From Bilabrum cf. latius (lineage: Eukaryota), in the NCBI GenBank assembly GCA_965178125.1, contig OZ237739.1:1054001-1118000 (forward strand): a stretch of 64,000 bases of DNA, in the 5' to 3' direction. Below are positions 6,156 to 55,866 of the stretch, piece by piece. Under the pieces are notes generated by a model. It was not told where the DNA came from, ran no database searches, and was given only the letters and a program-made list of their open reading frames with translations. The first letter of the stretch is position 1. Each line of letters begins with the position of its first letter. The position numbers and the translations under genes were made by a program.

Positions 6156-6237
6156 GACAGCATGCCAGAGTGGTTATTGGGATTGACTCGAAATCAATTG
6201 GGCTTCGCCCGCGCAGGTTCGAATCCTGCTGCTGTCG
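6156..6237 (+). tRNA. tRNA-Ser(CGA)
   Basis: Acceptor GACAGCA/TGCTGTC with discriminator G; anticodon stem ATTGA/TCAAT with CGA at 6189-6191; long variable arm GGGCTTCGCCC; T-loop GTTCGAATC; followed by T5 Pol III terminator at 6239-6243. Confidence 0.95.
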
Positions 6238-6380
6238 CTTTTTAGCCTTCTGCCCCCCAACCCCTTCGGCACTCATTTATGCCGATCCGTCGATCCAATA
6301 TGATCCAGGGGTGTATTCTTGCGAAGTTTGAGTCGATCAGTAGTAACTTTTGAACTAGTCGAAGCTTGTGGGTGTGAATT

Positions 6381-15530: not shown

Positions 15531-18500
15531 TCACATGGGCCCGCCGCCCAGCTCACGCGAGGCTCCTGCCAGCAGGTCAGCAAGCGCCGCGCCCTCCCCC
15601 GACGAATCAAGCACAGCGGCAGCTGACGCGAACGGCCGGCCGCCCCGCCGCGCCATCCCCTTGCCAGCCCGCGACGCCTCCACGGCGGGTCTGCTGGATG
15701 CGTACCCTGCGTGTCGCAGCGCTGCACCGCACTCGTCCACCACCCCGACCAGCACGTCCTCACACGAGGCCACCCATGCACCATGAGCATCAGAAGGCAT
15801 GGTCTGGGTGGCGGCGAGCACACGGAGGGCGTAGCATCGCAGCATGCGGGCAAAGTCCACCGCGCCCGCTCCGGTCACCATGCCCTGTCCCTGCCACACG
15901 CACGCCTGTAGCACCCGGCACAGCCCCAGCGCCCTGCACGTGGCAACCGCAGGAAGCAGCACGCTCTCATGCGTGCCCTCACAAACGAGCGGCTCGCTTA
16001 GCCACGACGCGCCCACCGCCCCCTCATCATCCCCACCGCCATCACCACCCGACCGAAGCTCGGCAACACAGGCAGCGGCCGCTATGGCCTCCTCCGCTCT
16101 GACAGCAGGCGTGCTCACCACTGGTGCAGCGGACGGCAAGGGGCTGTCCCCGCGGGGACTGGTCCCCGCCCCAGGCGATGCCTATACAGACTGCTTACCT
16201 CCCGCGTGCCTCCACGGAGCCGCATCCGGCGAGGCAGGCGCCTGCGCCGCGGGGTGCCAGCTAGGCAGTCTCGTCACCGGCCTGCACCCCATGACCCTCC
16301 TCACCCCGAGCAGGAGCCTCGCTGGGGTCCAGCCCTCGAGATCTGCGTTGCTCTCCGGCAGGGATCGCCGCGGTGCCTGCTGCCCTTGGGAGTCACCGCC
16401 CTCGGGGACGGTCTGGCCCGGCCTGATCCTGGCAGCGAGCCCTGCCATCAGCGGCCCTACCCTGGATGCTTGCCTGGACCTCCCACGCTTGAGCCAGGCG
16501 CCCACGCCCCCGTGCACCGCCTCCGCCTCTGCAGCGTCTAGCAGAAGCACCTGCGGCAAGATGGCACCGTCGAGGAGCCTGCCCGCGAGGCCAGCGGCCT
16601 CCTCGGCGGCATGCAGCGTCACTGCCTCCAGCATGCGACCCCTCCCCGCGGGGTCCTCGTCTGTGTACGCCGGCTGGAACGCGCCCGGGATTGCGAGGAG
16701 TGCCTGTGCCTCGGAGACGCACGCCAGCAGGCACCGGCACACAGCCGCCGACTGCCCCCCGTGGCATGCCCTAGCGCAGTGCCACGCACCAGACCTGGTG
16801 GCCAGCAGCCTTCGCGCAGCCGCAAGCGGCATCCATGGCTCTGGCACCGAGGCGGCCAGTGGAACTTCCTGGTGTCCCGACAGGACTGGACTCGCTAGCA
16901 TCCCTTTGGTGCTGGCGTACAGCTTTGGCTGCTCGAATCGATCTGGGATGCACCTGTCAAGCACTTCGCGCGCGTCCCGGATCCACAGGGCGCGAGACAC
17001 GTCCTGCTGAGCCGCGATGTGCTCGGCCTGGCTCCCATGGCCCGACGCGGGCGAGAAACTGGGGAGAACTGCCCTGGGTATGGTCCCGGTGGACGCTCGA
17101 GTGGGACCGCAAGGGGCTGCGAGGGCTGCGCGCATCAGCACCGCCACAGCCCAAGGCCACTGTCCATCCGCCTCTAGCTGTGCAGCGAACCCACGCACGG
17201 TGCTGCAAGCTGCCCGCCGTGCCGCCCCGTGCATCAGAGAGTGCCTCGCAATCGATTCGTTCGTGCTCTGCGCCAGCTGGATCCCGCGATACCTGCCATC
17301 GTCGCCGTCTTCCTCGTCTTCATCCTCGTCTTCGAAGCTTGGCTCAGCCCCGCGAGCTGCATCCATCGCCTCCTCATACCCGGTCACGTGCCCGCTGCTC
17401 AAGAGGGTCCACAGAACGAGAAAGGACAGCCGGCAGTCTGCTGGGTCTGGCGTGCTTCCAGAAGGCCGCAGGACGTTAGCCAGGTGCACGGGTGCCAGCC
17501 CAGCCTGGGGTCCTCTGCCTGGTGCTCGCGGCGTGGATGCCATGCGCAGCAAGGCCCAGCAGGCGTCCGCGTGCGCGGACAGGGACCAGTCCACCGCTGC
17601 ACCCGAATCCCTGCCGGACGCAGCACCGCCCGAGCCAGAGACCCACCTCTCTCTCGCCTTTTCTACCGCATCACCTGGGTTGGGCAGAGCCACTGCACCG
17701 CCAGCACCGGCGCCCTCGCTGCCATCTTCGGACGGCTCGCTCATTCCTATCGCCTCGATCTCAGGGGCCGTCAGTGGGCCATCGGCTCGCTCGAGCCACC
17801 ACGGCTGGGGGTGCGTGGCTGCGCCCTCGCGCACTACGCAGGCGTACGCTCGCACAGCGGCGTCGACAGTAAGCTCTCCTAGAGGCCTCGAGTCTTGCGA
17901 TTGCCCCGCGTCGCCGCTACCCGCTGCAGCCCCAGAGGCATGCCCGTCGGAGTCGCCGAACAGCCCGCCGGCGCTGCTCCCGTGGACGAGCCACTGCCCC
18001 GCTACTGCAAGCAGGGCCACTGGCCATGATCTCGCCTGCATGGCACACTCAGGCGCCTCGATCGAGCCGCTCGCGAGGGCCAGGGCCGCGCGCCCCGCCC
18101 CGCCCGGGCCAAGCAGCCTCTTCGCTCGCTTCCCCGCCGGCGAATCTCCATCGGCTGGGATACCCATCTCCATCCAGCCGTCTGCCGCGCTGGCCTCGCT
18201 CCCTACAGCGGCAGACGAGGGCCCGCCGAAGCTGTCGTCGAAGGCGGACGACCCCAGCCCTAGCCCTGCCCCTAGCTGCTGCCTCCTCACCCAGCGAGCC
18301 ACCCGACGAGCCGCTCGCGCGCTGCCGCTGGACGCAGTCGCGACCGCAACGCTCAGCCACGGTAGCCCCGCTCTCTCCGCGGCAGCCGCACAGCCTTCCC
18401 AGTCCCCTGCCAGAGCCGCCCTCCTGATCCCGCTGGCCAGCGCATCGTCCTCCGCCTCAGCATCCAGCGCGTCCAGCACACCCTGCGCAGCGCCGCCGTC

Positions 18501-19586
18501 CCCAGGCAGCCTCCTCACGTGCACTCCTTGCGCTACGTGCCTCCTCGCCGCGGCCCTGAGCCACTCCAAAAGCGCCTGTCGGCGCCAGGCCGCAGCGGCT
18601 GACGTGTCCCGGGCCCCGACCTTGTCGGGCGCGGGGCCCACCAGTGCAGTAAGAAGCGAGATGAGCTCAGCGGCATGCCGCGCGCTGCCCGGAAGGAACC
18701 AGGACGAGGGCGCGGAGAGCGGATTGGCAGCTTCTCGGCCTCTGATCTGCAACCCACGCAGTCCTCGGTGGACCGCTGGCCCCGGCTAGGCCAGTTGGTG
18801 TGCCCTCTGCAGCCGCCTGTCCTCCGCAGCGTCCGCAGAGGCAGAGGCGGCCTGCTCCTCCGCCTACTGGCCCGCCGCCCGGAGGAGTGCCTCACCACCG
18901 TCCCCCGCCGCACCATACCTCCCCCAAGCCAGCAGCAGCGGCCTCGTGAATCGAGCACGCTGCGAGGACAGGGCAGCTCTAGAGGCAGGGCCTCCTGCCG
19001 CCGGCAATCCCACCCCCGATTCTCCACGAAACAGCCCACCGGCTGGCACGACGCGTTCGACGTGCACGCAATGGGCCGCCGAGAGGGCTGGATCCGCCGT
19101 GCTCTGGCAAGGGACTGTCTGCAGCTGGGACGAAGTCTGTTGCTGCTGCTGCCTCCTTGAGTGAGAACTGCGAGTGAAGCTGTGGTTTCCCTTGTTCTCA
19201 TTTACATGAACCCTCACCCCGCTGGATGGGGCACCCGAATGAGCGAACAGGCCGCCGGCGGTCCACCCTACGCGGAAGCGTCTCCGTTGGGCAACGTCTG
19301 GCATCTCGAACGGAGCGATGCGGGTCGAGTTCGGGCCAGAAGGCGTCGAAGCCACACCCTAGCTCTGCATATGGGCTGCATAACTAGCTGCTCCCATCGC
19401 GATCACCGCCTCGCTCGGAGACGCGCCGTGTCCCAGGCCAGGCAAAGAGGGAGCCATAATCGTCTCGGCTGCGATTCTGTCTTCGATGTTCACGGAATTG
19501 CGCTCTTCGTCGGAACGTGATGCGGCCTGAGCTCGCAAAGCAGCTGCTTCGTGAGCATCTGCAAGCTCCGCACCTGCATCAGACAT
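15531..19586 (-). CDS. NUP96: Nucleoporin Nup96-like, separately encoded, ~1351 aa
   Basis: RRFRVGWTAGGLFAHSG and FAAQLEADGQWPWAVAVL match Nup96 motifs (RSFRVGWGP; QLESxGLWxWAIFVL); four TAGs (19359, 18864, 18786, 16182); ends TGA. Confidence 0.75.
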
Positions 19587-20040
19587 GGCTAGCCGAGGCA
19601 GCACCCGGGGCACTTCCGAGCCTGGCGGGTGTAGCTGCTACAGCCAAAACTGGCGCGGCTCTTGCGAAGAGCACATCATTTTCGTTTCATACAAGAATGA
19701 CTTTCGCTGGGACCGAGCATCTCTACCTGCGCTACTTGCACTAGCGGTGGGGGGCTGCCTTGGTCGGATCGGAGCTGATGAGCGCAAAGGCCTTGGTTCA
19801 GAAGAAGCCAGCGCTCTCGCAATAAGAGGCTCCGGCGGGCTGAGTAAATCTTGTATGTGCGCATCATCCGATGCTTGCATGCTGCGCACCCCTCGTGTGA
19901 ATACTCAATCGGGCGTTTGAAGCGAAATGTGGTTTGTGTAATTTCACTCGCAACAAAAAGATTGGGCGCAGATTGGTGAGTTTGGGATTGGTTTGCAACG
20001 TGCCAGTGACACTGCTATGCACTGCCTCAATGAGTAAAGT

Positions 20041-28045: not shown

Positions 28046-31000
28046 ATGTCCGGATGGGGGAATGATTCTAGCGTGAGAAGGTCTTTTTGTTCCATGTGTG
28101 TGCATTGTGGCTTGCACGTGATTCTCTCATCCTCCTGCCTACGTTCCTGCTCAACTACATATGTTTGGAGATGCTTATGTATCTTTCTAGTAATAGTTAC
28201 TGCTATGATGTGGATTTAGGGATGGGTGTGCTCGGTTTCGCTCGTGCCGCAACATTGTTGCCATTGCATATCCTGTCGTGCAAAATGAATCGCAGTACGG
28301 AGGCGGCGGCGATGGCTGGGGTAATAGCGGCGGTGGTGGCACGTCTGGTGGATGGGGCAACCAAGGAGGCGGTGCTGGTGATGCTTGGGGCAACTAGGGG
28401 GGCGGCGGGCAGTCCGGCGGTTGGGGCAACAGTGGTGGCGGCAACAGCGGCGGCAGCGGCGGTGGGTGGGGCAACTAGGGGGGTGGTGGTGGCACGTCTG
28501 GTGGATGGGGCAACCAAGGAGGCGGTGCTGGTGATGCTTGGGGCAACTAGGGGGGCGGCGGGCAGTCCGGCGGCTGGGGCAACAGTGGTGGCGGCAACAG
28601 CGGCGGCGATGGTGGGTGGGGCAACTAGGGGGGTGGTGGTGGCACGTCTGGTGGATGGGGCAACCAAGGAGGCGGTGCTGGTGATGCTTGGGGCAACTAG
28701 GGGGGCGGCGGGCAGTCCGGTGGCTGGGGCAACAGTGGTGGCGGCAACAGCGGCGGCAGCGGCGGCGGCTGGGGCAACTAGGGGGGCGGTGGAGGCAGCG
28801 GCGGTGGCACATGGCAGAGCAACTTTCCCATCGGCACACAGCGAATCCAGCCGGAGGCATCGAGACACGATCAGAAGAGCAGGCGCGGAAAGGTCACGAG
28901 CAGCTTCATCCACAGCTGCTCGGCCATGCGCGCCTATGCTGCCAAGTCTGTGGACGAGCTCAGGCTGGAGGACTACGTCAACGGGAAAAGGACCAACCCG
29001 GCGGTACTCGTGCATGGGCATGCGGGCGTGCTGCCCGGCATGCCACCGCCTCAACAGGGAGGGGGTGGTGGTGGTGGTGGGTGGGGCTCCAGTGGTGGGG
29101 GCGCGCAGTCTGGTGGCTGGGGCAACGGTGGAGGAGGCAACAGCGGCGGCGGTGGCTGGGGCGACTCGGGGGGTGGGTAGTCGGGCGGTTGGGGCAACTA
29201 GGGGGGTGGCGGGCAGTCCGGCGGATGGGGTAATTCTGGGGGCGGGCAGTCTGGTGGCTGGGGCAACGGTGGAGCAGGCAACAGCGGCGGCGGTGGCTGG
29301 GGCGACTCGGGGGGTGGGTAGTCGGGCGGTTGGGGCAACTAGGGGGGCGGCGGGCAGTCCGGCGGATGGGGTAATTCTGGGGGCGGGCAGTCTGGTGGCT
29401 GGGGCAACGGTGGAGGAGGCAACAGCGGCGGCGGTGGCTGGGGCGACTCGGGGGGTGGGTAGTCGGGCGGTTGGGGCAACTAGGGGGGCGGCGGGCAGTC
29501 CGGCGGATGGGGTAATTCTGGGGGCGGGCAGTCTGGTGGCTGGGGCAACGGTGGAGGAGGCAACAGCGGCGGTGGAGGCTGGGGCTCTTCTGGCGGTGGT
29601 GGATCGTCTGGAGGATGGGGCAGCAGCGGTGGAGGTGATGGTGGTTGGGGATCTTCTGGCGGCAATAGCGGTGGTGGCTGGGGCTCGTCTGGCGGAGGTG
29701 GGTCATCGGGCGGATGGGGCGACTCTGGCGGCGGCTGGGGATCTTCTGGCGGTGGTGGATCGTCTGGAGGATGGGGCAGCAGCGGTGGAGGCTGGGGCTC
29801 GTCTGGTGGTGGCGGGTCATCCGGAGGATGGGGCTCGTCTGGCGGCAGTGGTTCGTCCGGTGGTTGGGGCAGCAGCGGCGGGGGCTGGGGCAGCAGCGGC
29901 GGTGGGAATCAGGGCAACGGCTAGAATAACAGCATGGCGGTGTACGGTCCCGCTGTGGTGGACCAGTCGGAGGGCTACAACGAGCGGCTGCGGACCATGG
30001 TGGCGCGAGCGACTCTAGAAGGTGCAGAGGCCTCCATGCAACAGGAGAAGTCTGCGATCGAGAGGGAGCGCAAGAACATGAAGGACCTGGTCAATGCCAG
30101 GGTTCAGAGGATCCGACCGGCCCCGGGACTGGCGCTCACTGGCGGGATTGCCGGTGGGGGCGTTGCCTCACGCCCGCGAGCCACTGCCCTGATGTCCGGC
30201 TCGTCCAACGCGGCCCTCGTGGGTACGAGCGGCAGCAGCATAGCGGGCAGTCGCCTTGGCACTCCGTCCGGGAGGGCATCTTTGGTGCTTGGTGCCGCCA
30301 CGATGGCCAGCGGCATGATGGGGATGGGCCGGTCGGGTTCCATCGGGGGCGCCTCGTTCGTCTCGGGTATGTCTGGGTACTCAGGGTCTGCGTCCGTGGG
30401 AGGGTCTGGGCTCCGGGCGCGGCTAGCCGCGTCTGCTCTGTCGGGCGGGCGCCTCTCGCACGCCGGCGGGGGCAGCATGGCGGGCAGGGAACGGATCAAG
30501 GCGCTTCTGCGGGACTCGGCGCGGTCCAGCTCTGCCTCCTAGAGGGGTGCGCTTGGGCAGGACCTGTACAGGCAGGAACCGAAAGACTACTCTGACGACG
30601 AAGACGACGGGTAGGATGGGCGAGGGGCGTCCCAGATGCATGGTTCCTAGTCCGCCATGCCGAGAATGGCCTCATCGCAACCAGCCGCGGCCATCCCGCC
30701 CAGGTCGGTGCGGGGTGCCGCGGCCAGGGCACTGGTCATCGGCAATGCGATGGTGCCGGGGGATGACGGCCGCATCGAGGCGCAGGTAGCCTGGGTGCCG
30801 GAGCGGGTGGACCCCCTGGATTCGACGCTGCTGGAGGCACCCGTGGCCAGGACGGGGTTCTCTCGAGTCCTCGTCGTGATGGCCACCTCGGCAGGTGTCT
30901 CTGCGGAGAGCAGGAAGGCCGCCCTGGGCCAGGCAGCCGTTCGGACGGACGCGATCGTGGACGCTACCCTCCGGCACGAGCGCCAGGAGCTGGAGGAGGT

Positions 31001-32294
31001 GGCCAGGACGCACGCCGGCGTGCCCTCGGCCAACACGCTCACCGACCCGGGCATGCTTGGAGGCGCGGGCAGGGCTTCTTTCGCTCGGCCCGGCCACCTG
31101 CTGGCCTGGGTGGTGGTACCCACCGCCGGTTTGACCACGTCTCACGTCCTGGACGCAGCGGCCAAAGCCAGGGACGCGTGGTCCATCGTCCCCGCCAAGT
31201 CGGACGACGGCTTCACGGATCTCCCTGACGACGACGAGGCAGACGCTCTGGAGGACGGCACAGACCCAGCTGCTGCTGCTGCTGCTGCTGCTGCCGGGGA
31301 TGAGGAGGAGTCCAAGCACGGCGACTCTGCGCGCCCCGGTGCCTCCAAGAGGCCCAGGCCGAGCATCATGCTGCCCTGCCAGATGCTGTGCCCGCTGACT
31401 TCGAGGGAGCTGCAGGCGGCCTCGGACAGCATGGTGCACGTGAGGCCAGCCAGCCGAGCGGTGCTGCTGCCGCGAGGGGAAGCTCTGCACGGGCACGGGG
31501 TTCGCGACGGGGACTGCGTGGAGGTCGTGTGCGACGTGAGGGGCAGGCCAGCATACGAATACGAGCCTGTGCGCGCCGACGTGGCTGCACGCAGGGAGCA
31601 AGAGGCGGCTGCGAAGCAAGCGGCAGCGTCAAGGGGCGCCGGGTCATCGTCCAAGCGAGCGGGGGCCGCAGGGAGCGAGAGCAAATCCGGCGAAGCGGAC
31701 ACAGGGCCAGGCTCAGCTGCTGCCACGCGAGCCGATGCCGGGGCCCGGGGACCCTCCCGCCAGGTATCAGCGGCAGAGAAAGCCCTTAGGGCTGAGATGC
31801 TGCGGGACGAGGCATGGTACGAGCAGCAGCGCGCCTCTAGGCACGGCAGGAGGCTGCCCCGGCTGCCCTCCGTGAACGATGGGTTCTTCGTGCAGCCGGG
31901 GCACAGGGCCCTGGCGGCCATGACCGAGGAGCAGCTCTCGAGGGTGGAGGGCTTCAGCGTGGGGGTGCCCGGGATCGGCGAGCTCAAGTGCCTGGCTCCC
32001 GTGGACTTGAGGGGAGAGGACGTTGCCGCCATGCTCGTGTTCGAACAGGACACGGTGGAGGTGCGAAGGTTCCTTGAGGGTTCGGAGCAGGGCAGCAACC
32101 GGCTGCCCGATGTTCCCGCGGTGGTGTCGATGCAGCTGTTCGGCGACGGGAAGCTGCTCGGCCCGTCCCAGATGGAGGAGGTCGAGAGGGCCCTGCGGCA
32201 GGACGACGGGGCAGCCTCGGGGCAGCCGAAGCGGTTCCGCGATTTCTCCAAGGAATCCGGGGTGTATTCGTTCACGGTGGAGCGATGGGCCTGA
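28046..32294 (+). CDS. NUP98: Nucleoporin Nup98-like (WG repeats, GLEBS, peptidase S59-like domain); join(28046..28072,28296..32294)
   Basis: GLEBS-like CSAMRAYAAKSVDELRLEDY; C-terminal LSRVEGFSVGVPGIGELKCLAPVDLRG..GVYSFTVERWA; about 16 in-frame TAGs; ends TGA. Confidence 0.8.
28296..29910 (+). repeat. Coding minisatellite encoding GGWG/WGN repeats (units of ~150 nt and 141 nt)
   Basis: Recurring anchors at 28395/28548/28698 and at 29178/29319/29460. Confidence 0.9.
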
Positions 32295-32413
32295 TGTGGC
32301 GTTGGTGGGCAAGTTTCGTCGCGCTTGCAATTGCGCGCAGTTTCACGCAATGCTGAAAATCCGATATCTTCTGGATCGCTTCATGCAGTTGCAGTAGTAG
32401 CTCTCGAGCATCA

Positions 32414-35400
32414 ATGAGGTTTCTTTATCCCGCAGGTTTCGTATTATGCCTGCATATCATGCATGTCGTAGGATACTCGATGGGTTGGCAGCCCCAGCCG
32501 CGGCAGGATGCCGTCGTTTCATGGCCGGTGACGGGAGATGAATTCGAGTACAGAGTCACAGTGATAAGCGATGCAGTGTTTCGCATCGAGCTCATCAGTT
32601 CGGGATCCGATGGTGACGACAGGCCCACATTGCGCGTCAAGAATCGCGATTTGGGCGCGACACCGACGTATACGACTACGCCCGATGGCAACGGGGCGAT
32701 CACTGTTTCGACCGCCCGAGCATCGATTCGAATCGACGGAAGCAAGCCAATTCCCAGCTCTTGCGCCAAAACCACGGATGGAATCGATCAGGTAGGAGGG
32801 CAGCGCGTGCCATCGTATCCCCAGGGTCTGCCGAATGTATCTTTGGAGCAGTGCTGCGCTGCCTGCGATAACGCGACAGGCTGCACCACGTTCGTCTGGG
32901 CGAGCGACTCCAAGATGTGCTACTTGATGAAAGGTGTTCAATCCACAAAGTCGGCCTCGAACCGAACGCTGGGAAGCAGGGTTCCGACCGGCTCGGCGTC
33001 CGGGAGCAGCTGCCTGCCGGCTGGGTCCGTAACAGCGACGTTCCAGCTCGTTGCCGGGCCGCCGCTGCCCCCTGCAAATTGGACCGGCAAGTGGACCGAC
33101 GCTTCGTCTGCAGCGGGCAACCTGGGCGGCGTCTGGGAGAAGCTGGACTGCTACAGCAACCCCAGCGAGTGCTTCGACACGTACGTGGCGGGCGAGCACA
33201 CTGGCATCTTGTCCAGGGACGGTTGGGCCGTGCTGGACGAGACGACGACGGCGCGGCTCTCTGGTACGCAGTCCGACGATGGCGTGTTTGGGCCCTGGTG
33301 GGCGGTAACGTCGACGGATCCTCCTATCGCAGCTTCTACCGACGTGTGCGACGTGCTGGTCTTGCTGGAGGGCAGAGACTACGCCACTGCGGCGCGCGAC
33401 TGGCAAGAGGTCAGCGGCCCCATCCAGCTGCTGGACGAGGAAATGTATGACGTGTGGTGGAGCAGGCACGACCCGTGGAACGCGAGCTAGCTGCACGACT
33501 TGCTGCAAGGGTACGCCGATAACAACCTCCCCATGCGAACCATTAGCATCGACATGCAGTGGCACACGCTGGGGTACATGGACAACCCGCCGAACGTGAA
33601 CGGGCCCGGAGACACTTGCACCATCGATGATGATGATGGGGTGCCTGCGCTGCAGAGCCACGGCGCATCGTCACGCAATCGCCTAGACAGCGTCCACCGC
33701 AGCATCGGCGGCAGTACCGAGCTCACAGTTGGCGACACCAAGTGCAAGGGCTGGGGCGGGTTCGACTGGAACACCACCGCCTATCCCAATCCCAAGGACT
33801 TCGTGGACAGCTATTTCCACAGCCCAACTGGGAATCCGCTCAAGAACCCCATCAACGTGCTGCTCAACGTTCACCCGCAGGACGGGATCGACCACTGCCA
33901 GGCCAAGTACCCAGAGTTCGCCGCATTCACCGGTGTGGACCCGGCCTCGAACGAGACCATCACGATGGACAACGGAAACCGAACTCTGATGCTGAAATTC
34001 TTCACCGACTACCTCGGTGCAGACCCCCTCTCTGCGGTCGATGCATGGTGGACGGACTACTACGGCTCCAAGGGCCCCAACGACCCGAGGCAGTCGAGCT
34101 CGCAGCTGCTGTGGTCCAACTACATGTATGGCACGTCATAGCTGGTGCAAAGGGGCAGGCGACCCATGGTGCTCACCAGGAGGGGAGGCCTGGGTGACCA
34201 CGCGTTCTCGCCCGCCTTTAGTGGCGACGTGTTCCAATCGTGGGACATCCTGACCTATGAGGTGAATTTCACCGCCAGGGCTGCTTCGGGCGCTCTGCAA
34301 GCGTGGTCGCACGACATCGGTGGATTCCATCGTTTTGGAAGCACGCCCGGAGCCTGCGTGCGCGGCGATGGCAACGTGACCGATCCGCTGGCAGCCGAGC
34401 TCTATATGCGCTGGATCCAAGCCGCCGTGTTCTGGCCGCACATGCGAACCCACTGCCGATTCTGCGAGAGAAGAGTGTGGATGTTCACGGGCTTCGCGGG
34501 TGCCATGGGGGACGCATTCCGCCTGAGGCATGCCATGGTGCCGCACCTCTACAGCGCCATCGCTACCGCGGCCGAGACCTCTGCCCCGTACCCCATTCGC
34601 AGCCTATTCGTGGACTACCCCGAGGAGCCGCTCGCCATGTAGTTTGCAGACACTCAGTTCATCTACTGCGACAACATTACGGTGGCACCGATCGCCAGGC
34701 CTGGTCTTGTATCCACAGATGCCGATGAGGCCATGGGCACTAGCAGTGCCATCACCGCTTCGGCATCGAATGTCACAGCGCCTTTGGCCATGACGCAGCA
34801 GCTGTTCGTCCCACCTGGGGAGTGGGTGACGTGGGAGGCGGCGCGGGCGTTCAGGGGACCCTCCACTGCCACGCTTGAGCTAAGCTCGGTGGCCTCCCTG
34901 CCAGCACTGGTCAAAGGCGGGTCCGTGGTGTTCACGCGACCGTGGAACGCCTCCAGCGCAGAACCGATGGTAAAGCGACCGCTGACTGCTGTGGTATTTC
35001 CGTCGTCCACGTGGATGTCGACGTCGGGCGCATCGCACGGTCGCGCGGCAGACGGCATGGTTCGCATGGACAGCAGGCGGGTGGAGCTTTATGAGGACGA
35101 CGGCAAGTCGGCTCCGGCGTCAGGCACGGTGGGCGCTCCGCTTCGGGCTCGGCAGCTGGCCGGTGGATTTAGGGCGTCTTGCCGCACGCCGGTGGCGTAC
35201 GCGGTGGTCCGCTCTGCCGAGACCGGCAGGGTGTCCATCCGAGGCACAGTGGGACCGTCGATCGGAGCAGCTTGCAGCCCTGTGGGTACTACTCGCGCTG
35301 TCAGGGTGGAGCTGCGTGGGGCTGGCATTCGAGATGGTCCGCTGGGGCAGGCCCGGGGACTGTTGGGACTGGCTGAGCCAGCGGATGGCCTGTGCCCTTC

Positions 35401-35491
35401 CTGCCGACCAGGCGGCACAGTGCTTCTGCTCGATGCAGAGGCAGATACGTCCGTTCCCGGTGGCGTCAAGTTTGAAATGCCACTGAACTGA
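32414..35491 (+). CDS. Secreted glycoside hydrolase family 31 with inserted PAN/Apple domain, ~1025 aa
   Basis: Hydrophobic N-terminus; CCAACDNATGCTTFVW..CYL (PAN); WWSRH, IDMQWH, LNVHP, VDAWWTDY, FSGD, WSHDIGGF, ELYMRWIQ; TAG at 33488, 34139, 34640; ends TGA. Confidence 0.9.
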
Positions 35492-35681
35492 AGCTCATTC
35501 ATGCTCATGATCCCGGATCATTGATCCGATCCGATGGCGCGTGCGTTCATCACATCATGGCACCTTGCCACCGTCGCTCCGGCAAGAATCGATACAGATT
35601 CACGTTCACGATGTCTCCGTTTCCAAGAAAGTGGCTATGATTCCAAGAAGCACCTACCGGTTCTCAAGACTGTCGCTTGGC

Positions 35682-36758
35682 ATGTTCCGTGTGGCAATCT
35701 CTTCTGTGCGTTCGAGAGCTCCCGCTGTCGACGCCACGCAAGGCGCTAGGTGGCTCGTGGGGCGCCCAAGCTTGCCCTCAGGCTGCAGCACACCTTCAAA
35801 AGCAGTTCCAAGGAGCGTGAAGCCGGATAAAAGGAAGCAGTAGCCTGATGAGCAAGGCATAAGCTCCTTGCTAGCGGCTGTGGTCGGTCTCGTCTTCCTC
35901 AAGAGCTACGTCTTTGATTTTCACGATACGATGGGGCCATCCATGCTGCCAACCATCATGATAGCTGACGATGTTGTAGCTATTGACAATATATCCGTGC
36001 AGCTGCCAGGCGGTAAGAGCAAAATTAGGAGGAACGAAGTCGTGATTGCGTGCAAGCCGTCTGGAGACACCAAATCTTCGACCGTGTGCAAAAGGGCGAT
36101 CGCTTTTGAAGGGGATGTAGTTGTTACCCGTATGGGCATTGCGACCCGCATTCCTCCCGGCCATGTGTGGCTGGAGGGAGACAACCCCGAGAATTCCAAG
36201 GACTCCAGGCACTACGGGCCTGTCCCTCTGGCGGCAATTCAAGGGAGGGTCGTCGGCATCGTGTCGCCGCCTTGGCGCGCCCAATGGATCGAGCCAACAA
36301 AGGAAAGACCCGCCGTATCCAAGTGGCCGGGCTCCGGGAAGGCGGTGCGGGTGTTTCGAGCCGAGGAGTGGGAGCAGGTCGCCGTCCTGGAGCACTTGCT
36401 CTCCGGTCTCGCGGCCCTCGACATGTTCGAGAGGGTGAGGGAGGGATACGATGAAATGGAGAGGGAGCGTGCTAGGAGGAAGGAAGCAGGCGAGGCTTTG
36501 CAAGCCGCACCATCGGATGACAAGGTGCTACACAATGAGGGAAAGCGAGAGGAGGGTGAGGGCGCGGGCCAGCCATGGACGGCCGGTGCCGAGCAGGCCC
36601 ACCTCCGGCAGATGAGGAGGAGGGACGCGCTCGCCCGGGCGATCTGCAGGGAGGTGCTCAGCGGTGACACTATTGGCGGGTCCGCCGGGGCATTGGCGAG
36701 ACGGACCACCTGGGGTGGGGCAGAGACTGCCAGTGGCACGGTCGATGGGCGGCAATGA
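35682..36758 (+). CDS. IMP1: Mitochondrial inner membrane peptidase subunit 1-like (S26)
   Basis: GPSMLPT, VCKRAIAFEGD, IPPGHVWLEGDNPENSKDSRHYGPVP; ATG 35682 joined through TAG at 35841; ends TGA. Confidence 0.85.
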
Positions 36759-37141
36759 AAAATGAGTCGTCTTGGCCTATACACAATCCATGGAGCTCCA
36801 AATCAATTCACTATCGCGACTCGGAAGCAGCCTCGTCTGCTATCAACTTCTGCAAAGAACTTGCCGATGCTATCTCGCTACCGGCCATGCTACCGACGAT
36901 GGCACCGTCGCTCCCGTGCGCCGCTACGGTACAATGATCGGCGTCGTCATTCGTGCGAATCGTGACCTACAAGTCTGGATTGAAAAACTTAATCGCTGGC
37001 AACTGCTACCGCACGAATTCATCCACAATGCTTTGTTCGCTCGCCTTCTTTAGGGGGTACTCTATAGCAACCGATGCCACCCCCTCTTTGGACACTAGTG
37101 GCGATCCAGACTAGAATTGGAAGGTTCCGAGCACAGCTTTC

Positions 37142-38212
37142 ATGATCTACCTTTTGTTTACAGCCTTCTTCATGCTTTTTGGGAGCGGCATCGCCTTGAT
37201 ATTGCAAAGAGTTGCAGTCGGCGTGTTCAATAATAAAACAGATCGCAACAAGCTTGAAAATGCATATTTTCGAAGGTTCCGTAGCCGGTAGCGAACTTGC
37301 ACCAGAACGCGCGACAAGCAAAGGTTCCCGTGTCCCATGGCTGCACCTGTCGACCCTGGGGCAATCAAAGAACCTCCCAGAATAACAACATTTGTACCAG
37401 ATGCCTCGCATACCGAAGGCTCGATTCTAAACCCTCGTCCAGGGTTGGCAAAGGATCTGGGTCTTGAGGTCGACATGGAAGGATGGGTGACAAAGGCCAC
37501 TACAGAGAACGGAAAGCCGACTTCTTTCACTTTCTTTTGGCAAAAACGTTATCTAGTACTGTACTCGGCAGAATGCGAGCTGCGCTACTACGCGGGCGTG
37601 CGAGAGTCGCGGTTTGGTAACGTACCTCTGGACGAGCGGGCATGCATCCCGATTGAGAGCATTTCACACATCACTACGCCCCCGAGAGACGACCCTCTTT
37701 CATTTGATAATAAGGCCTTTAACATTCATTTCAAGCGATGGGGCAAAGGAAGGGGGGCAAAGATGCCGAGGGCGCAGTACAAGGACCAGGCGGGCCAGCG
37801 GGACACCGAGCACCCTGGCGTGCTGAGCGTGATCGCCACCGATCCGACCAACAAATTCGAGTGGATCGCTAGAATATCATCTTATTTGCCTGGCGGCAGC
37901 GGACAGGCGTTCCAGGGGCAGGAGGCGAACCAGTTCGGGGCGCCTCAGGGGGGCGGGCTTGGGCGGGGCTCGAGCGGGGTGAGCGCCGGCATGCTGGGTG
38001 CTGGGGGCAGGGCTGGAGCTGGAGCAGGAGCTGGTGCTGGGGCGGCTCCTCTTGGGGCATCTGGCGGGCAGGGGCCAGCAGGCCCCGCGGCCAGTGGGGG
38101 GAGGGCAGGCGGGGACCAAGGCAAGGGCAGCGGGGCTGGTGGGGGCGCTGCTGCTGCTTCTGGCGCTGGGCAGCAAGCTGGCGGGTCAGCGAGTGGAGCT
38201 TCTGGATTGTAA
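37142..38212 (+). CDS. PH-domain protein with probable N-terminal transmembrane helix; start uncertain
   Basis: MEGWVTK..WQKRYLVL..LRYY..EWIARI; upstream MIYLLFTAFFMLFGSGIALIL is in frame through TAG at 37289; ends TAA. Confidence 0.7.
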
Positions 38213-38412
38213 ATATAGCATGTTCTTTTGATTATTTGTGCGTATGCAGCCCCGGTGCACAAGGTCATCATTCGTCACACTTGCTCGACTCTGCCAACAG
38301 TGCAGCCGTTTCACCCACTTGTGCCGGAGGATCACGGAGGCCTGTTCAGGCATTTGCTTTACCTGATCTATAGTTCGGGGCAGGCTATATAGCCGTGCAT
38401 CGCCATTGCGCG

Positions 38413-39417
38413 ATGTAGAGGGGGTAGGACTGCAGTGGGTGTTGCTCGTGTTGCTGCACGCGGTTCGGAAATACCCAGCGATTCTTTTTGCTGGGGTGTT
38501 GCTTTCGAGAACCGAAGGATAGAGACGACGGGGATGCTTCCAGAGATGAGCTGCTGGGCTCGTTGATTTCTGCTGGTTTGGTTATTGACGATTTGCCGCC
38601 GGATTCTGAAGTTTTTGGCCTACCTGCTTCTGAATGCAGTGCCACCGTGCCACCTGTGCAGTTGAATCCAGGTTCTACAGGTGCCAGTGCACCGACCATC
38701 CAGCAGAACGCCGGTGGCTCGGAAGTTGGAGGCGAATCATCAACCGCCACGCCTACGCCTACGCCATCGAAGGAGTCCGGGGTGCCAGCAGCCGCAGCGC
38801 CCGGCACAAAACCGAGCATGTCGCGAGAAGAGCGAAGTCAAATACTGCGCTCGAGGGAATATCGTATGGGCCACTTGTCCGGGCTACCGAGGTTTCGATG
38901 TCCCCTGTTTCCTTGCACGATCCATTGCATGGCGAAGGAAGGGTACCCGTGGGTTACCGCCGCTCTGTACATTCTGAGCATTGCGGCCAGCGTAACAACC
39001 CTATCTCTAGTTAGCTGGAGGCTGCATATGGCCGTGTTCTGGGTGCAAGCCGCGCTGATTGCTGCCCTCTTGGCCAGCGCGCTGTGCACGTCGGTATCGG
39101 ACCCCGGCATTATTATCCGACAGAGCGAGCGAAGATGCAACCAACAGAGAGCATTCCTAGAGCGAGAGGGCCTCTTGGACCTGCACACGTACTGCGACAA
39201 ATGCAAGGCCTGGAGGCCCAGCTGGACCACACACTGCGAATGGTGCGACTGCTGCGTCACTAGCAGTGACCACCACTGCCCCGTCTCGGGGAACCACATT
39301 GGAGGTCTTAATATGCTGCAATTTCAGTGCATGGGCGGTTTCTCTCAGTTGATGTGCTACTTTGTGCTGGGCCAGCTAGTGGCTCTGGCCGTCGTCGGCA
39401 TACGGGCTGCACTATGA
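38413..39417 (+). CDS. DHHC-type protein S-palmitoyltransferase
   Basis: SDPGII, YCDKCKAWRPSWTTHCEWCDCCVTSSDHHCPVSGNHIG; the only in-frame ATG near the 5' end gives M*RG*DCSGCCSCCC; ends TGA. Confidence 0.88.
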
Positions 39418-39645
39418 CCTTGTTGACACCCACAGATTGGGAGACTGGGGGACTGATTTTGTCTACCGAAAATGCTTTTATGTAGCCCGTTGACTTCTCT
39501 CAAGTGCTGTGAGCACGCACACACATACGCATGACCCACACGGCACGCCCTCGCAACTATGGCCCCCCGTCCCAGCACCGCAATGCGCTGCAAGGACAGC
39601 CGGCAGAGCGCGGGGCACGCCAGCACACGCATCGTACTCCATCAG

Positions 39646-42600
39646 TCAGCCCCTTGGGCCGTGCTTGTACACCCCTCCACCCGCTGGATCCCTGTCCCTG
39701 GTCCTTCCCGGCACCACCCCCGGCCGGCTCGATCTTGTCGGACCCCCCATGTCGCCGCTGCCATAGCCAGACCGGCGCTTGTGGTGGTGCGAATGCGCGC
39801 CGCCTCCCATTTCGTACGATACAGACTCACCCACTGCCCCGCTTCCACCGGTGGACCGCCTGTGTCCACTGCGGCTACCACTGCGGCTACCCGCTCTGCT
39901 GCCTGCCCGGCTCCCTGCTCGGCTACCCACCTGTGCGGTAGTCATACCAGGCATGCCTCCCCTTCCAAGCATCATCGAGGGGTGCTGCGCCAGAGGTCTT
40001 GCACCCCCCATGCCCCCGGCTCCCATCCCTCCCCCCATACCTGGGTGCATGCTGCCCCCCATTGGGGACATGCCAGGGACACCACCCCCACCACCCATCA
40101 TCATCCCGCCGCCCATCGTGGGTGACCGCTGCATGCCGCCCTGCCCCATCATCTGCATCTGTTGCTGCTGCCTCCGCCACATCATAATCTGCTACTACTG
40201 CTGCATCTGCAGCTGCTGGATCGTCTGCGTCGGGACCTGCTGCGGCAGCACAATCTATCCGTTGGGCAGCCTGATCCTGACGCCCTGCGGGGTCTGGAAC
40301 GGACCAACCAGAACTGGGGGCTGCATCACCCGGCCGCCCATTGTACCCACAGGAATCGACTGGCCCCTCGACATCCCCGATGGATCCATGCGCCCATCGC
40401 CCATCACAAAGCTGCCAGCCATCGCCATGGGGCTACGACCAGCTGGGGGAACACCGCCCATCCCGCTGCCAGGCCGACGGTTCGCAGCCGGTGAAACCGG
40501 ACCTGATCCATGCATGCCCATCCCCATCCCCGCCCCCCTGCCGCTGCCACCGCTGCCACCTGACTGCATGTGCATCCTTTGCTCTGCTGCCGCTCGGTCC
40601 AACGCGTCACCACCAGTGGGACCACCCTGACGCGCAGCCGCTTCCGCTTCCGCTTTGGCTTTCTTGGCGTCGATCCTATCCTGCGCCAACCTCTTTGCAA
40701 TCTCGATCTGCTGCCGCCTGGCCATTTCCTCCGCGCTTGCTTCAGCGGCCGCAGCTGGTGCTGGAGCCGGAACCGGTGCGGGAGCAGGCCCCGCAGCAGG
40801 CGAGCGCGCGTGCGCATTGGACTGCATGGGAGACACTGGTGGCTCCTTTCCAACGGCCACTGTGGATGGAACAGACCCTGCGGCGCTACTTGCACCCGAT
40901 GGCAGGCCTTTCGCGGTTTCATTGCCATCGTTTGGCGCGGGTGCAAGTTTCCGCGGAGTGATCCGCTCACCCGTTGCGATGCCCCCGCTGCCAACCGACG
41001 AGAACGAAGTGGCCTTGTGCAGAGGCAGGTTCCCAGCTTCTCTTGGCGAGATCCGATTTGAATCAGCAATCGTGAGTGGCTGCATGCCTGCGGCCTTGCC
41101 CCCAGGGCCACTACCGGGAGTGCTCCCCGGAGGTTTCTCGTCGTGGCCGTAGCGCTCTTCGAGTGGCTGAGCGAGCAGCTGTGCGCGACTCATTGGCGCA
41201 GCGCCGCTGAAATCGCCGTCCTTCTGGTTCGCCATGGCGAGGGCAGCCGCAGCGGCAAGCTTTCTCTGCTCGTCCGTCTTGAGATCTCTGTCGGCGTCGA
41301 AGAACTCAGATGCACCGCCCCGGCGCGCGGCAAACGAGCCTGTCTTGCGGAGCCCGATCCCTGCCTGCTTGAGACCCTCCCGCTCGGCCTTGCTGAGGTC
41401 AGTTTCACCCGCCTTGAGGCGACGAGTTGCCTCGCCCGGTGCAATGAGGCCAGTTTTGGAGGTCTCTGGGTCGTCGATCCCAGTGGCAAAGCTCCCCATG
41501 GACGGCTGCAGCAAGCTCGCTCGACGGCCTCGGACATCCGCGGCGCTCGCCTGCCGCTTGAGCGTCTGCTGCTTCTTGCTCGTCATCTGAACGATGATCT
41601 CAGCCTTCCGCAGGCGGTTCTCAAACCCGAGCACACCGATCCCGGCATTCCTCACCTTCTGCTCGAAGTCTTCCAGGAAAGCCCTGCTCAGCTTGAGCTT
41701 GAAGCGGTCCTCGATGCCTGGCAGCAGGTCATCCGCGTCATCCATGGCACCATTGCTCTTCTCCAGAGCCTTCTCGATCGGCTTGCCCACCTTTGCCGGC
41801 AGCACACCCATGTTCTTTGCCCTGACTCGGTCGATGAGACCTTCATACGAGATGGTCGTGCCCTTGAGGCGGGTCAAGTAGATCCCAAACAGCCTGCGAA
41901 GTGCAGCGGCGCCGCCCAGCTTGGCCTCAGCAGCGTCAAACCCCTCGCCCTCATTGCCTTGTGCCTCCAGCAGCCTCGGCTCCACGATGGCTTGCACGGC
42001 CTGGCTGATGCCCTGCTCGTCCATGGCCTGCTTTGCCCTTGCCTGCATCGAGCGAGCCTGCGTGCCGGGGTCCGTCAGTGCAGCGGCGAGGCTGCGGCTG
42101 CCCTTGGTTTCCTCCAGAGCGCTGAGCTGGGGTCGCTCCGTGGCAGCAAGCAAGTGTGCCATGTCAGCTGGCATTTCCACCCGCCCGCCCCGAAGTTTGG
42201 CCTGAGCCGCTGCCTCTTCCAGTCGCTTCATCGCGCGATCTGCCGCCCGCTTGCGCTGGGCCAAGTTCCGTCGCTCCTTGGTCGCCGCTGTGACTGCTTG
42301 CAGCGCCTGGGCCGCAGCGAGCATGAAATCCGACACGATGGGCTCGCACAGCCAGTCCGACTGCCCGGGCACCTCCCACCAATGAGCCGCAAGGCTTCCG
42401 GGACGATCTGAGGTCGAGTGGCTCTTCTAGATTGTGCCAGAGTCCTCCTCACCATCGTCGTTCCCCACATTATCGAGCACCGCCGCTGGCACACCGTGGT
42501 GCCTCACCCGCCTGCCTGTCGTCTCTGCAGCCTTGATGGCACCCTCGGCGTGCTCAAGAGCCGCCTCCATGGCAGCTGCCTCCCTGGTGCCCCTCTGGAA

Positions 42601-45600
42601 CACATGGCCCTCCGTGGACTCCTCCTTTACGTCTTCCTGCAGGCTCTCCAGCCGTCCCTTGGCTTGTTCCAGACGAGCCTAAGCATCCCTTTCTCGGCTG
42701 AGCAGCTTGTCGATCTTGGACTTGTGAGTTGTGTTGTAGGTTCCAACTGCAGCACGCAGCTTCTTGACGGCGTCGTCTGCCTCCTGGGCCTGCACTTCGG
42801 CTGAGGACACGCCCCTTTCTGCCCTCTTCAGTGCCTTGCCTCGGTCTTCAGGCCCGCGCGCTGCCTCTAGCATCGGTCCGAGCATGCGGTTACCGTCTTT
42901 GCACGCGCGGATCGCTGCATCCACCGCTGCTTCGGCCTCGTGCTCTGCCTCCTCGACGTCTCGGGATGGGGCATTCAGCACCCTGCGAGCCTGCGGCGAT
43001 TCGGCGCCAGCACCGCTAGAAGCTCCACCGGCAGCCAGCATGCTAGCTGGCTTGGTGCCCTGGAACTGAGCCGCGAGTCGCTTCCATTCGTCCTCTGCCC
43101 GCTTTGTCTGCTCGTCCGCCTAGTCGAGTCTTCGTCTGAATTCATCCTCCTGCGTGCCGAGCTGCTACAGCTGCCTTTGCACCTCTGCAGACCACTCTGC
43201 GATGGCCTACTCGGCCTCCTCCGTTTGTCCCTTGGCTGTATCAGCAGCAGGCAAGAGCTTCTTGACGAGGGCGGCCACGCCAGCACTGGCGGCATCACGG
43301 GTGTCCTTCAGGCGCTGGGCCTCCTCAGGCCCCACGGTGGGAGCAACGCCCTCCTCTGCGTATTCGTCCTCGTCCACGTCCGCCAAATCGCAGCTTGTCT
43401 TGGCCTCCTCTTCGGCGCCACGAGCGTCCGCCAGCGCGCTACTGAGCTCATCGCCGACTCGGATGGCGGCTTCTGCGGCCGCAAGCTTCCCGTCGATCTC
43501 GGTGCTCGGCGCCCCCAGATCGTCGTACTTGCCACGAGCTTTGGCTGCCCTCTCCCGCAGCTGGTGGAGCGCCTGCGCCGCGGCCAAGATGGGCGCCCCG
43601 TTCTCCTATTCATTCAGCAGCTTGCGGACGGCACGATCGGCCATGTTGACCTTGAGCTGTGCCGGGGGCACGGAGTCCACGAATTCTCTCTGCAGGTGCG
43701 GGGGCGCGTCAGTCCTCGGCACAAAGGAGGTGCCTGCAGCCAGCGAGGGCGAGGGCGACATCAAGGTGCCGGAAGGGGACTCTGCGGCGCCGCTCGCCTT
43801 GATGCTTGCCTCATCGTCATCGGGCTTGAAGAAAGCCTGCTTGCTCCGAACCGTGCTTGGATCCGTCGTGCCAAGCGTGGACCCTGACTTGGCACCGACC
43901 ATGTCCCGCAGTGTGGCAGACGTACCGACGGTGTGCTGCGCCTCAGCCACCAGCTCGGCGGCGTGATCCACCCTGCGCTGATCCGCCACAATAGCTGCAC
44001 CTGCTCGCAGTTTCTCCGTGGCGTCCATGGCGATTCCAGTCCCCTCCATCTCCGGGTCTTCTAGCCCCTTGCGCTTGCTCCGGGCACTCTTGAGTGCGGT
44101 GAGCCTTGCACCCACCGTGCGCAGTCGTACCTGGGCCCGAGACAGGGCCGCAGACGCCTCGGCGACGTCTAGGAGCCGCTGCTGGTTCAGAGCCTCCTTT
44201 GCCTGGGCTTCATCGGCAAGTGTTGCTTTGGCTGCACGACGCAGAGCGTCCGATGCTCGCGGCAGCAACTTCTCTGCAAACTCGCGGATGGCAGCAGCGG
44301 CCGCGGGCGTGAACGCAGGGAGGCGCTCGTTGTCTGCTGCCTCCCCCAACTCCGCAACAGTCGCGTGCGTGTCGCCTGCCGCTCCCGAGGCACCCACCGA
44401 AACGGCCCCACCTCCTGCCACAAAGCCAGTCAGGGCACCAGCGCCGTCGTGTTGGCCAGAGGCAGCATCCAAAAGGGCCTGCTCGGCGTCTGCGGCCTCC
44501 TCTGGCTCCTGCAAGATCATGCTGATGCGCTTGCCTCTCCGAGTACGCCTACGCCTCGGCTGTCCCGCCTCTCCGCTAGGATCGGCAGACACGGAACTGC
44601 CAGAAGGCGAGGCAGTCTGCGAAGCCGCCACGCTTGCCGCGCCCGAGAGTTCTTTATCCAAGGCAGCATCCGCCAGAGCGGCCGCTCCAGCGGCAGAGGG
44701 TCCGTTTGGCGAGAACACGATGCCTGCGGGGTCTCCAGCCGATGACTTGCCCCGCACATGACGACCGACAGATCCAGAGCCATTCGCAGGTGAGGGCAGG
44801 ACATCACTGGGGTCACCTCCATCGAAAAAACCGGCGATTTCGAGCGACTGGCTGACTTCTGGCATTCCCATTGCCTTTGATCGGGCCTTGGTGGCAGCAA
44901 GTACCGTCGAGGAGGCCTCCTGCATTGCATCAGCAGAGGCACTCGAGACGGCAGACCGAACTGCCACCGGTGAGGCAGACAGCGATGATCTCCTCCTCTT
45001 CCTGCGTATGTTCTTGGACAGCTTAACTGCCTCTTTCTGCTTGCTCCAAAGCAGCTCCAGCGCGTCTTGCGACTCTCGCAATCGCTTGCTGGCCTTTGCG
45101 AGCAGCCGCAGCAGCCTCTTTGCAGCGCTCAGTTTGAGCTGCTCGTCGTGAGACTCCACCTCGCGCTCCGCTTCTGCCACCGAGCCGCCAGCAGTAGTGA
45201 TCGAGCCCTCGTAGCGCCTCAGCAGCCGCTGATCCGGGATGACCCTGCCGTCCTCTGAGAGCTTCTGCACCTCTTCTTCGCCAACATCGTCGTCGTCCTC
45301 GCTCTCTAGCGTGGTCTTCAGGGCCTTGGCAGCAGCGACAGACTGCTGGGCGCCGCTGACAGCCTTGGCCAGCTTGGCTGCAGCCACTATGTCCGCGGGT
45401 CCTCGCACATGAGAAGCCCGCGGGTCCACGTGGATGTCCAGCTTGAGCGGCGAGCGGATGGGCACGATGGTCTTCTCCAAGCCACCACCGGACTCCTCCT
45501 TCTTGCCTTTGCCTCCCATTGCGCCACCAAGCCTGGACCCGTCATCGGACACGGCCAGATCCGTGTCGCGGGCAGCACCAGTGACCATGTGGCTGTCGCC

Positions 45601-54600: not shown

Positions 54601-55866
54601 GGCCTTGGCCTCGTTCCAGCGATCGTCTGCGCCGTCCATGCGTCGCTTTGCGTCGGCCAGCGTGACTTTTGCATCAGCCACACGCTGCAGGACGTCTTCG
54701 TCAGGAATGGCCGACTGCCCCATTCCGAACTCGTCTTCGTCCCCATCGCTCCCCTCGGAATCGAAGAGCCCCTCTCCCTCCTCCTGCCCCGCGCCCGGTC
54801 TAGACTGCCGCGTGCCTTCATGGGACAGCGGCGAATCGGCGGCGGCGTGATCCTCAGCGCCCGGTGTTCCCAGCATGGGGCTCTTCCGTGGGTGTTTCTC
54901 CCCCCCTTCGCCTTCTCCACCGTCTTCATCGCCCCCCTTTCGACCGTAACGCCTGGCTCTCGAGTCGCGGATCTTTCTAGGGGTACGGCCCTTGACCCGA
55001 TCCACCGGTGGCTTGGGCACGTGGCGATGCGCGAAATCAAGATCTTCCTCATCCATGGCCGGCTTGTCCAGCGCTTGGTAGTCCCCCACCCTGGGGACTG
55101 CCCCCGTGTCTGCGTCCACCTCCGATGGGCTAGGCAGGCGGTCGGGGGGCTCCTGTACGCCGCCATCGTCCTCATCCTCTTCCTGTACCGTCTGCTCGCG
55201 AAAAGGGTCGTAATCGCTGACCAGTTTAGGTCCGTTGAGTCCGTGCGCTGCGACGACGGTCTTGTCTGTGGCCTTGGCCTTCAGGCCCCGCTTGAAGGGC
55301 CCCTGTATGCTACGCTCTAGGCCCCGGCGGCGAAGGAAACTGGCCGTGCGCTTGGGTCCCTTGCCTTCCTCACTCAAAGGACCGTCGGCAGCATTGGGTC
55401 CTTCCCGCCCCCTGCCCCTGCCTCTGCCTCTGCCTCGGCCCCGCCCTCTGCCCCTTCCCCTGCCGCCATCCGCACCGCCACCGTTCCACCGACCGGCATC
55501 CTAACGCGAGCCGGCTCCCGATGGGTGCTTAGATTCCGCGCTCGGATGATCGTTTCCAGCACCATGCAGGCTTTGTTTGCTCTGTTTACGGCGGTAGGCG
55601 CGCCCAGTGTAGTGCAAGTCTCTGGATCCGTAGCCGGCTCTCGCGCGTCCTGCATCGTCAAGCAGCTCTCCGGCAACGCTGCCCTGGTGGCTCTTCAGGC
55701 CAGATTGCGATGCAGCTGGGGCAGAGTCAGACGGCAGGCTTCCATCATTGGCGCCATCAAGCTTTCTGCGAGAACCGTGCCGTCTCCCGATCGCACCGCG
55801 ACCGCGTCCACGCTCAACCCCATACCGAGCCGATGTTGGTCTGTGAGCAGAAGAAGAAGGGTGCAT
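39646..55866 (-). CDS. Giant Ala/Glu/Arg-rich coiled-coil protein, ~5400 aa; 5' end uncertain
   Basis: One frame for 16.2 kb with 25 TAGs and no TAA/TGA; (RG)n tract near N-terminus, Gln/Met/Gly-rich C-terminus; ends TGA. Confidence 0.8.

Follow-up and report, generated by a model that had tools for sequence, protein, structure and literature searches.

The stretch of DNA analysed here, referred to as the window, comprises 64,000 nucleotides (C5:1054001-1118000) of the eukaryotic assembly G000, which has 48.6 Mb in 111 contigs. Its GC content is about 62%. On the plus strand it carries a gene for a homologue of the nucleoporin Nup98, in which tryptophan-glycine (WG) repeats are found instead of phenylalanine-glycine (FG) repeats and in which the codon TAG occurs repeatedly in frame. 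The main exon extends over 28296..32294, within an open reading frame (ORF; 28278-32294) that is obtained by reading TAG as Gln, contains 16 in-frame TAG and ends with TGA. A predicted first exon (28046..28072, MSGWGNDSS) would be joined to it in phase 0 across a predicted intron of 223 bases (28073-28295, GT..CGCAG), whose CGCAG acceptor matches that of the first two introns of the eRF1 gene. WG repeat block 1 (28296..28811; 13 Trp, 0 Phe, 6 TAG) is followed by a GLEBS (Rae1/Gle2-binding) motif (28911..28976), which lies in the TAG-bearing frame, by WG repeat block 2 (29061..29927; 25 Trp, 0 Phe, 7 TAG) and, at the C terminus, by the autopeptidase (S59) domain (31878..32294). The S59 profile PF04096 scored 34 bits against a cut-off of 28.4, and the assembly yielded no other PF04096 locus. 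The GLEBS profile PF21240 was matched with an E value of 1.5e-5 and 25.4 bits, just below its cut-off of 27, and all seven PDB matches of the GLEBS region at E<=1 were Nup98/peptidase S59 chains (best E 0.0018). Judged by these domains, the repeat-bearing ORF is Nup98. In an alignment with 28 Nup98 matches, the HF/S cleavage motif is changed to RWA followed by a stop, and there is no fused Nup96; Nup96 is encoded by a separate gene about 8 kb away (15531..19889, minus strand; PF12110, E 3.2e-13; 5 TAG). The two repeat blocks together have 38 Trp and no Phe, at a density of 7-9 Trp per 100 residues, and their spacers are nearly uncharged. The Phe-Gly motifs (GLFG/FG) that define FG-nucleoporins are absent from both blocks.

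The repeat region consists of two tandem arrays, one of 153 bp in 3.1 copies (28332-28797, within block 1) and one of 141 bp in 3.5 copies (29096-29585), the latter running out into degenerate GGWGSS units of block 2. Over 28296-29921 the frame has 12 TAG, no TAA and no TGA. The 12 TAG (span 28395..29483, plus strand) start at 28395, 28476, 28548, 28626, 28698, 28779, 29178, 29199, 29319, 29340, 29460 and 29481 and are read as Gln, a meaning that comes from dynein and eRF1 homology. The earlier note had claimed homology-free evidence for Gln, on the grounds that the repeat units toggle between TAG and CAA or CAG. The codons it cited are present and all in one frame: CAA at 28362, TAG at 28395, 28476 and 28548, and TAG in the GxSGGW motif at 29178, 29319 and 29460. 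The toggling was not found: eight of eight in-register slots with TAG, CAA or CAG keep their codon across the three copies compared. Because in-register copies hold the identical codon, the 12 TAGs represent four amplified sites. The variable position of the 38 WG[N/D/S]x motifs is occupied by Ser (22), TAG (9), Gly (4) or CAA (3), and that of the 23 WGNx motifs among them by TAG (9), Ser (7), Gly (4) or CAA (3); the slot in the 20 GxSGGW motifs has CAG in 9 cases, TAG, ACG and TCG in 3 each and TCA in 2. TCG is one base change away from TAG, CAA two. Since there is no in-register interchange and the WGx slot is most often filled by Ser, the repeat alone cannot tell Gln from Ser, and with Gly and Thr occupying the slots as well it is weak evidence for Gln. 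It does demonstrate TAG read-through, without naming the residue. That TAG means Gln was borne out, by homology in dynein paralogues and eRF1 rather than by the repeat; a Nup98 barrier domain bearing WG for FG was absent from the earlier note. The TAG-coded Gln in this repeat would be an ordinary polar spacer residue, multiplied by tandem duplication.

The meaning of TAG was derived mainly from the dynein heavy chains. Twenty-four DHC_N2 matches correspond to 19 loci, each of which was taken as a 10-kb stretch. With TAG as sense, 17 of the 19 stretches are open end to end; of the remaining two, one ends at a true TGA and one is interrupted by TGA. The frames were picked for openness, and the zero count of TAA and TGA is therefore partly by construction. 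All 19 dyneins contain TAG, which amounts to 274 TAG, next to 405 CAA, in 62,553 codons. In columns that are at least 70% conserved in the other paralogues, the consensus at TAG sites is Q in 18 of 25 cases (R 3, E 2, V 1, I 1) and never Y, S, L, W or K; the same test gave Q for 22 of 23 CAA and 205 of 269 CAG. The summed log-likelihood over 200 of the 274 TAG sites (the other 74 have fewer than 12 aligned paralogues) is +64 for Q, -103 for E, -180 for S, -276 for L, -387 for Y and -394 for W. The earlier note had suggested looking for exchanges of TAG with GAG, TTG, TAC or TGG as a sign against Gln. Run on the dynein paralogues, this check does not speak against Gln but puts the Gln codons in the lead, with enrichments in TAG columns of 4.16 for CAG and 3.59 for CAA, followed by GAG (1.66), TTG (0.69), TCG (0.55), TGG (0.54) and TAC (0.53). 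A comparison of one dynein (L057, 1,000 residues, 9 TAG sites) with PDB chains gave Q at 5/9 sites in 9fqr_Xz, 5/9 in 9d2f_T and 3/9 in 8glv_Fm. In eRF1, the position of one TAG (48) is occupied by Q in 107 of 109 homologues. From these alignments, nuclear TAG almost certainly encodes Gln. Three of the dynein heavy chains (L065, L066, L068), very long and rich in insertions, are still open after 15 kb and have 32-44 TAG each.

Conserved C-terminal ends were reached in 16 of the 19 dyneins, the other three having no end inside 15 kb and thus not entering the count. Thirteen end with TGA, three with TAA and none with TAG. The genes for eRF1 (TAA), HSP90 (TGA) and Nup98 (TGA) conform to this, so that TAG terminates none of the 19 conserved ends known from the 16 dyneins and these three genes. 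We are very confident that TAA and TGA are the stop codons. Sense TAG seems, from two sequences, to be shared by relatives: a related protein (P0252; 93% identical) starts directly after the last TAG, and a metagenome relative (L081; 2,174 bases, 64%) has two in-frame TAG within the conserved Nup98 C terminus, in variable columns, and stops short of the repeat. L081 was the only locus obtained in the metagenome scan with Nup98; the scan with Nup54 gave no relative, and a word-based homologue search with the Nup98 C terminus gave no match. Next to the L081 gene lies a GH31-like gene, whose orientation is reversed compared with that in the window.

A tRNA(CUA) is encoded in a single copy in the nuclear genome (C23:907607-907679; L002:1501-1573, minus strand; 69.8 bits). 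The tRNA survey scored 63 of 780 candidates, among which no nuclear His, Asp, Trp or Leu tRNA was found, and 34 predictions were compared with tRNA(CUA). Its D arm is like that of Gln and Glu tRNAs, and A73 and G34, given as Tyr determinants (PMC9976931), are missing. From the alignments, we infer that it is charged with Gln; it would decode UAG and would be unable to wobble to UAA. GlnRS loci were located in the assembly. A pattern of the tRNA-Gln anticodon arm had a single match, which is not a tRNA, and was discarded. The gene for eRF1 (L031:1068-2941, C35, plus strand) has two TAG in the stop-recognition domain, so that synthesis of eRF1 itself requires read-through of UAG. In this domain TASNIKS is changed to TAVNIKS (S60V), with V in none of 109 homologues, and RGNGTS to KADGTS; in addition, a TAG-coded Gln occupies the site equivalent to Leu69. 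An L69A exchange in eRF1 raises readthrough at UAG (PMC5304391). The eRF1 probably lost its grip on UAG, and we infer that its changes may have caused the recoding.

Some observations weigh against Gln and have to be set against the dynein data. Among the 34 predictions, tRNA(CUA) is closest to tRNA-Tyr(GUA) (50/73 identical positions, compared with 48 for Gln(UUG) and 44 for Gln(CUG)), and its acceptor stem has 6 of the 7 pairs of tRNA-Tyr(GUA), including the Tyr element C1-G72. At the second TAG of eRF1, 104 of 109 homologues have Leu and 3 have Q; the TAG sites of L057 correspond in the PDB chains, where not to Q, to E, K, A, L, R, T and D, with one L common to all three chains; and the window protein has W and S where L081 has its two TAGs. 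This could mean that TAG stands for Ser, Tyr, Leu, Glu or Trp in place of Gln or, in view of the Tyr-like acceptor stem, ambiguously for Gln and Tyr. Ser does fill 22 of the 38 WGx slots, and codes with UAG as Ser or as Leu are known (PMC11687900). However, of the six residues compared in the dyneins Q alone has a positive log-likelihood, TAC, TCG, TTG and TGG are depleted in the TAG columns, and the tRNA lacks A73 and G34; we regard another residue as highly improbable. Even less credible is that the standard code applies, with TAG edited to CAG in the mRNA or with the TAGs being errors, pseudogene stops or the product of a wrong frame. There is indeed an alternative frame over the repeat that is open without TAG (28087-30018, 643 aa, table 11), but it has no Pfam match, whereas GLEBS and S59 sit in the TAG frame, and it was rejected as the coding frame. 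Contigs of four public runs (three studies; none confirmed as RNA) have zero letter differences to the window over 29900-49800, and because of this match the TAGs downstream of the repeat are not assembly errors. Moreover, the presence of TAG in every dynein and in eRF1, and of a dedicated tRNA(CUA), speaks against a standard code. Finally, TAG could be ambiguous, Gln within genes and a stop near the 3' end of the mRNA, as in Condylostoma or Blastocrithidia. In favor of this, eRF1 retains GTS, NIKS and YxCxxxF, and the gene ends with known homology that were checked number only 19. Yet none of these uses TAG, and in L071 the frame continues through several TAGs in the last 70 codons to the conserved end. 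A double meaning is therefore very unlikely, if a little less so than the other two alternatives.

The replacement of FG by WG is not restricted to Nup98. Nup54 (L077:652-2118, C3, plus strand) and Nup62/Nsp1 (L073:1144-2160, C18, minus strand), found by their coiled-coil domains (Nsp1_C in the latter), both have a WG/WD N terminus without FG. Residues 1-160 of Nup54 include 14 W, 1 F and 0 FG, residues 1-110 of Nup62 5 W and 0 F. Accordingly, all three FG-nucleoporins identified by Pfam (Nup98, Nup54, Nup62) bear WG for FG. In a Nup153-like protein (L195:3153-7241, C19, minus strand), aromatic-Gly repeats at the C terminus are combined with a basic tail, and we take this layout to be that of Nup153/Nup1; within one repeat, the motifs shift from DAFG to DAWG/DPWG towards the C-terminal end. 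A loose search for WG patterns was uninformative; of 20 loci picked from the matches listed for two tighter patterns, the other FG-rich ORFs looked unrelated (DEAD-box helicase, kinase and La-like by eye; MINDY by Pfam). The search with PF00638 returned a RanBP1-like gene only. PF13634 matched one ORF, on C13, with SAFG repeats and basic spacers. Among 61 Nup98 matches in a library clustered at 50%, many of them fragments and a named oomycete Nup98-Nup96 included, 20 have 12-73 FG and none has more than 8 WG.

It is likely that the WG repeats, as read from these proteins, do the job of FG in the barrier of the pore. The central channel would then, most likely, form its selective phase from Trp-Gly motifs, and the transport receptors would be adapted to them. 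On the other side, the number of proteins inspected is small, only the three identified by Pfam; the profile searches for Nup58/49 (PF15967, PF21121) and Nup214 (PF16755) gave no match. The Nup153-like protein, which has no Pfam match, still has 17 FG against 9 WG, and Nup98 repeats that depart from FG exist elsewhere as well, in P0295 as a mixture (FG 19/WG 8) and in P0260 as Leu-Gly. One might also assume that the WG repeats are Argonaute hooks, some other interaction module or the result of neutral drift in a degenerate pore, and not a working barrier. WG/GW repeats are the textbook Argonaute hook (PMC3774778), and Nup98, Nup54, Nup62 and the NTF2 of G000 are all very divergent. But the WG motifs sit at the canonical positions of FG, flanking GLEBS in Nup98 and at the N termini of Nup54 and Nup62, their density in Nup98 is close to the figure given for FG in Nup98, one per 12 residues (PMC9918544), and their spacers are almost devoid of charge. 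A change from F to W takes two base changes and would have recurred in three unlinked genes. Furthermore, no match to the Piwi domain was obtained in G000 in a search that was positive in two control genomes, which weakens the Argonaute reading; the search for PAZ, made without a positive control, gave no match in G000. An origin as hooks or by drift appears unlikely. Taken together, we have good confidence in the full explanation, in which TAG is Gln, TAA and TGA are stops and the repeat is the WG barrier of Nup98. A causal link between the change of the code and the switch to WG is not seen.

As to the lineage, the eRF1 sequence, in which the boundary of the third intron is approximate, is placed by FastTree in a 10-member clade that includes Bicosoecida sp. 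CB-2014 (support 0.999; long branch, few named sequences). The named HSP90 matches are nearly all from stramenopiles (64-67%). The mitochondrial genome (C111, L082-L085; 38,401 bp) uses code 4 with TAA stops, and ARAGORN found 10 tRNAs in it, with no tRNA-Thr among these; code 4 is likewise used in bicosoecid mitochondria (PMC6723347). The organism is probably a bicosoecid. Two types of 18S rRNA are present in the assembly, one on C95 (L035) and one on C12 (L036; 1,700 bp, its 5' end unusual), which agree in 1,411 of 1,811 columns. On C95 there are (GGGGTTT)n repeats as well, and its material probably represents a second eukaryote inside the assembly.

UAG alone as Gln has been described for Iotanema spirale (PMC5304391) and for Hartmannula sinica, Trochilia petrani and Protocruzia tuzeti (PMC11687900; PMC10553269). 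The code found here is of the same kind, with UAG as Gln, UAA as stop, a predicted CUA tRNA and an altered eRF1; it differs in belonging to a probable stramenopile (bicosoecid) with a GC-rich window and in having TGA as the main stop (13 of the 16 dynein ends). A tRNA(CUA) gene is present, whereas neither H. sinica nor T. petrani yielded a suppressor tRNA (PMC11687900; PMC10553269) and in Iotanema its detection awaited a genome. In contrast to the prediction made in PMC5304391, this tRNA is not a one-base derivative of the tRNA-Gln(CUG) of the same genome, with which it shares 44 of 73 positions. The changes in eRF1 are also different, S60V and the L69 site here and T32G in Iotanema. With NCBI table 6, in which UAR is Gln (Tetrahymena, hexamitins, ulvophytes), it has TAG as Gln in common; unlike there, TAA is a stop here, as in eRF1 and three dyneins, and the 17 open dynein stretches have no in-frame TAA. 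TAG as Gln is thus a known kind of code in a probably new lineage. In the literature searched, we found no stramenopile with a recoded nuclear stop, with the proviso that most subscription papers were outside the search and an earlier report is possible; the accessible text of the Halocafeteria genome preprint does not mention "genetic code" or "stop codon".

The nucleoporins can be compared in the same way. Nup98 has the usual order of repeat, GLEBS, repeat, linker and S59, Gly/Ser/Asn/Gln spacers and an aromatic motif roughly every 12 residues, and Nup54 and Nup62/Nsp1 have kept their Nup54 and Nsp1_C coiled-coil domains. What sets the three apart from their known counterparts is Trp for Phe and, in Nup98, RWA-stop for HF/S, with Nup96 as a separate gene. 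Disordered WG/GW repeats with G/S/N/D spacers are shared with the Argonaute-hook proteins GW182, NRPE1 and SPT5L; unlike in these, the repeats here are in nucleoporins, at FG positions, and Piwi and PAZ were not found in G000. Strong selection against tryptophan is described for the FG domains of Nup98 across all eukaryotic clades; YG phases keep out native receptors, and the need for co-evolution of the receptors was proposed as an obstacle to a switch of motif (all PMC9918544). In the accessible parts of PMC3774778 and PMC4622936, WG is mentioned solely for Argonaute-binding proteins. A WG nucleoporin was not found in the literature searched, for which the same proviso holds.

Some other features of the window and the assembly are mentioned for completeness. 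Once TAG is sense, the ORFs of the window reach 5,407 codons; the ORF of this length (39646-55869, minus strand; 25 TAG) has no Pfam match and is by eye coiled-coil-like and rich in Ala, Glu, Gln and Arg. A tRNA-Ser(CGA) gene lies at 6156-6238 on the plus strand. A gene with a ubiquitin-like domain is present as a near-identical tandem duplicate (1933-3456 and 4124-5653, minus strand); its two copies have a single TAG each, in the same place, and were dismissed as evidence on the code. The tRNA survey also revealed a nuclear tRNA-Ile with the anticodon GAU (L008, L047), the anticodon of eukaryotic tRNA-Ile usually being AAU, and four further CAU tRNAs that share an atypical sequence (L039, L043 and L022 among them).

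With only slightly better than even confidence we propose a wider picture, in which the barrier of the central channel has been rebuilt on WG, fully in Nup98, Nup54 and Nup62 and partly in the Nup153-like protein, together with co-adapted receptors, as an exception in nature to the FG rule, and in which, independently, the organism would be the first among the stramenopiles to have recoded a nuclear stop codon, read by a Gln-charged suppressor that may have arisen from a non-Gln, possibly Tyr, tRNA. Practically, an annotation with the standard code cuts short most genes of the lineage, for which P0252, beginning after the last TAG, is an example. Earlier cases of UAG alone as Gln came from transcriptomes and partial assemblies; with tRNA, eRF1 and synthetase available together in a GC-rich genome, it becomes possible to study how the suppressor arose and how UAG was uncoupled from UAA. 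A living WG pore would make directly testable the question of why nuclear pores use FG over other aromatic motifs.

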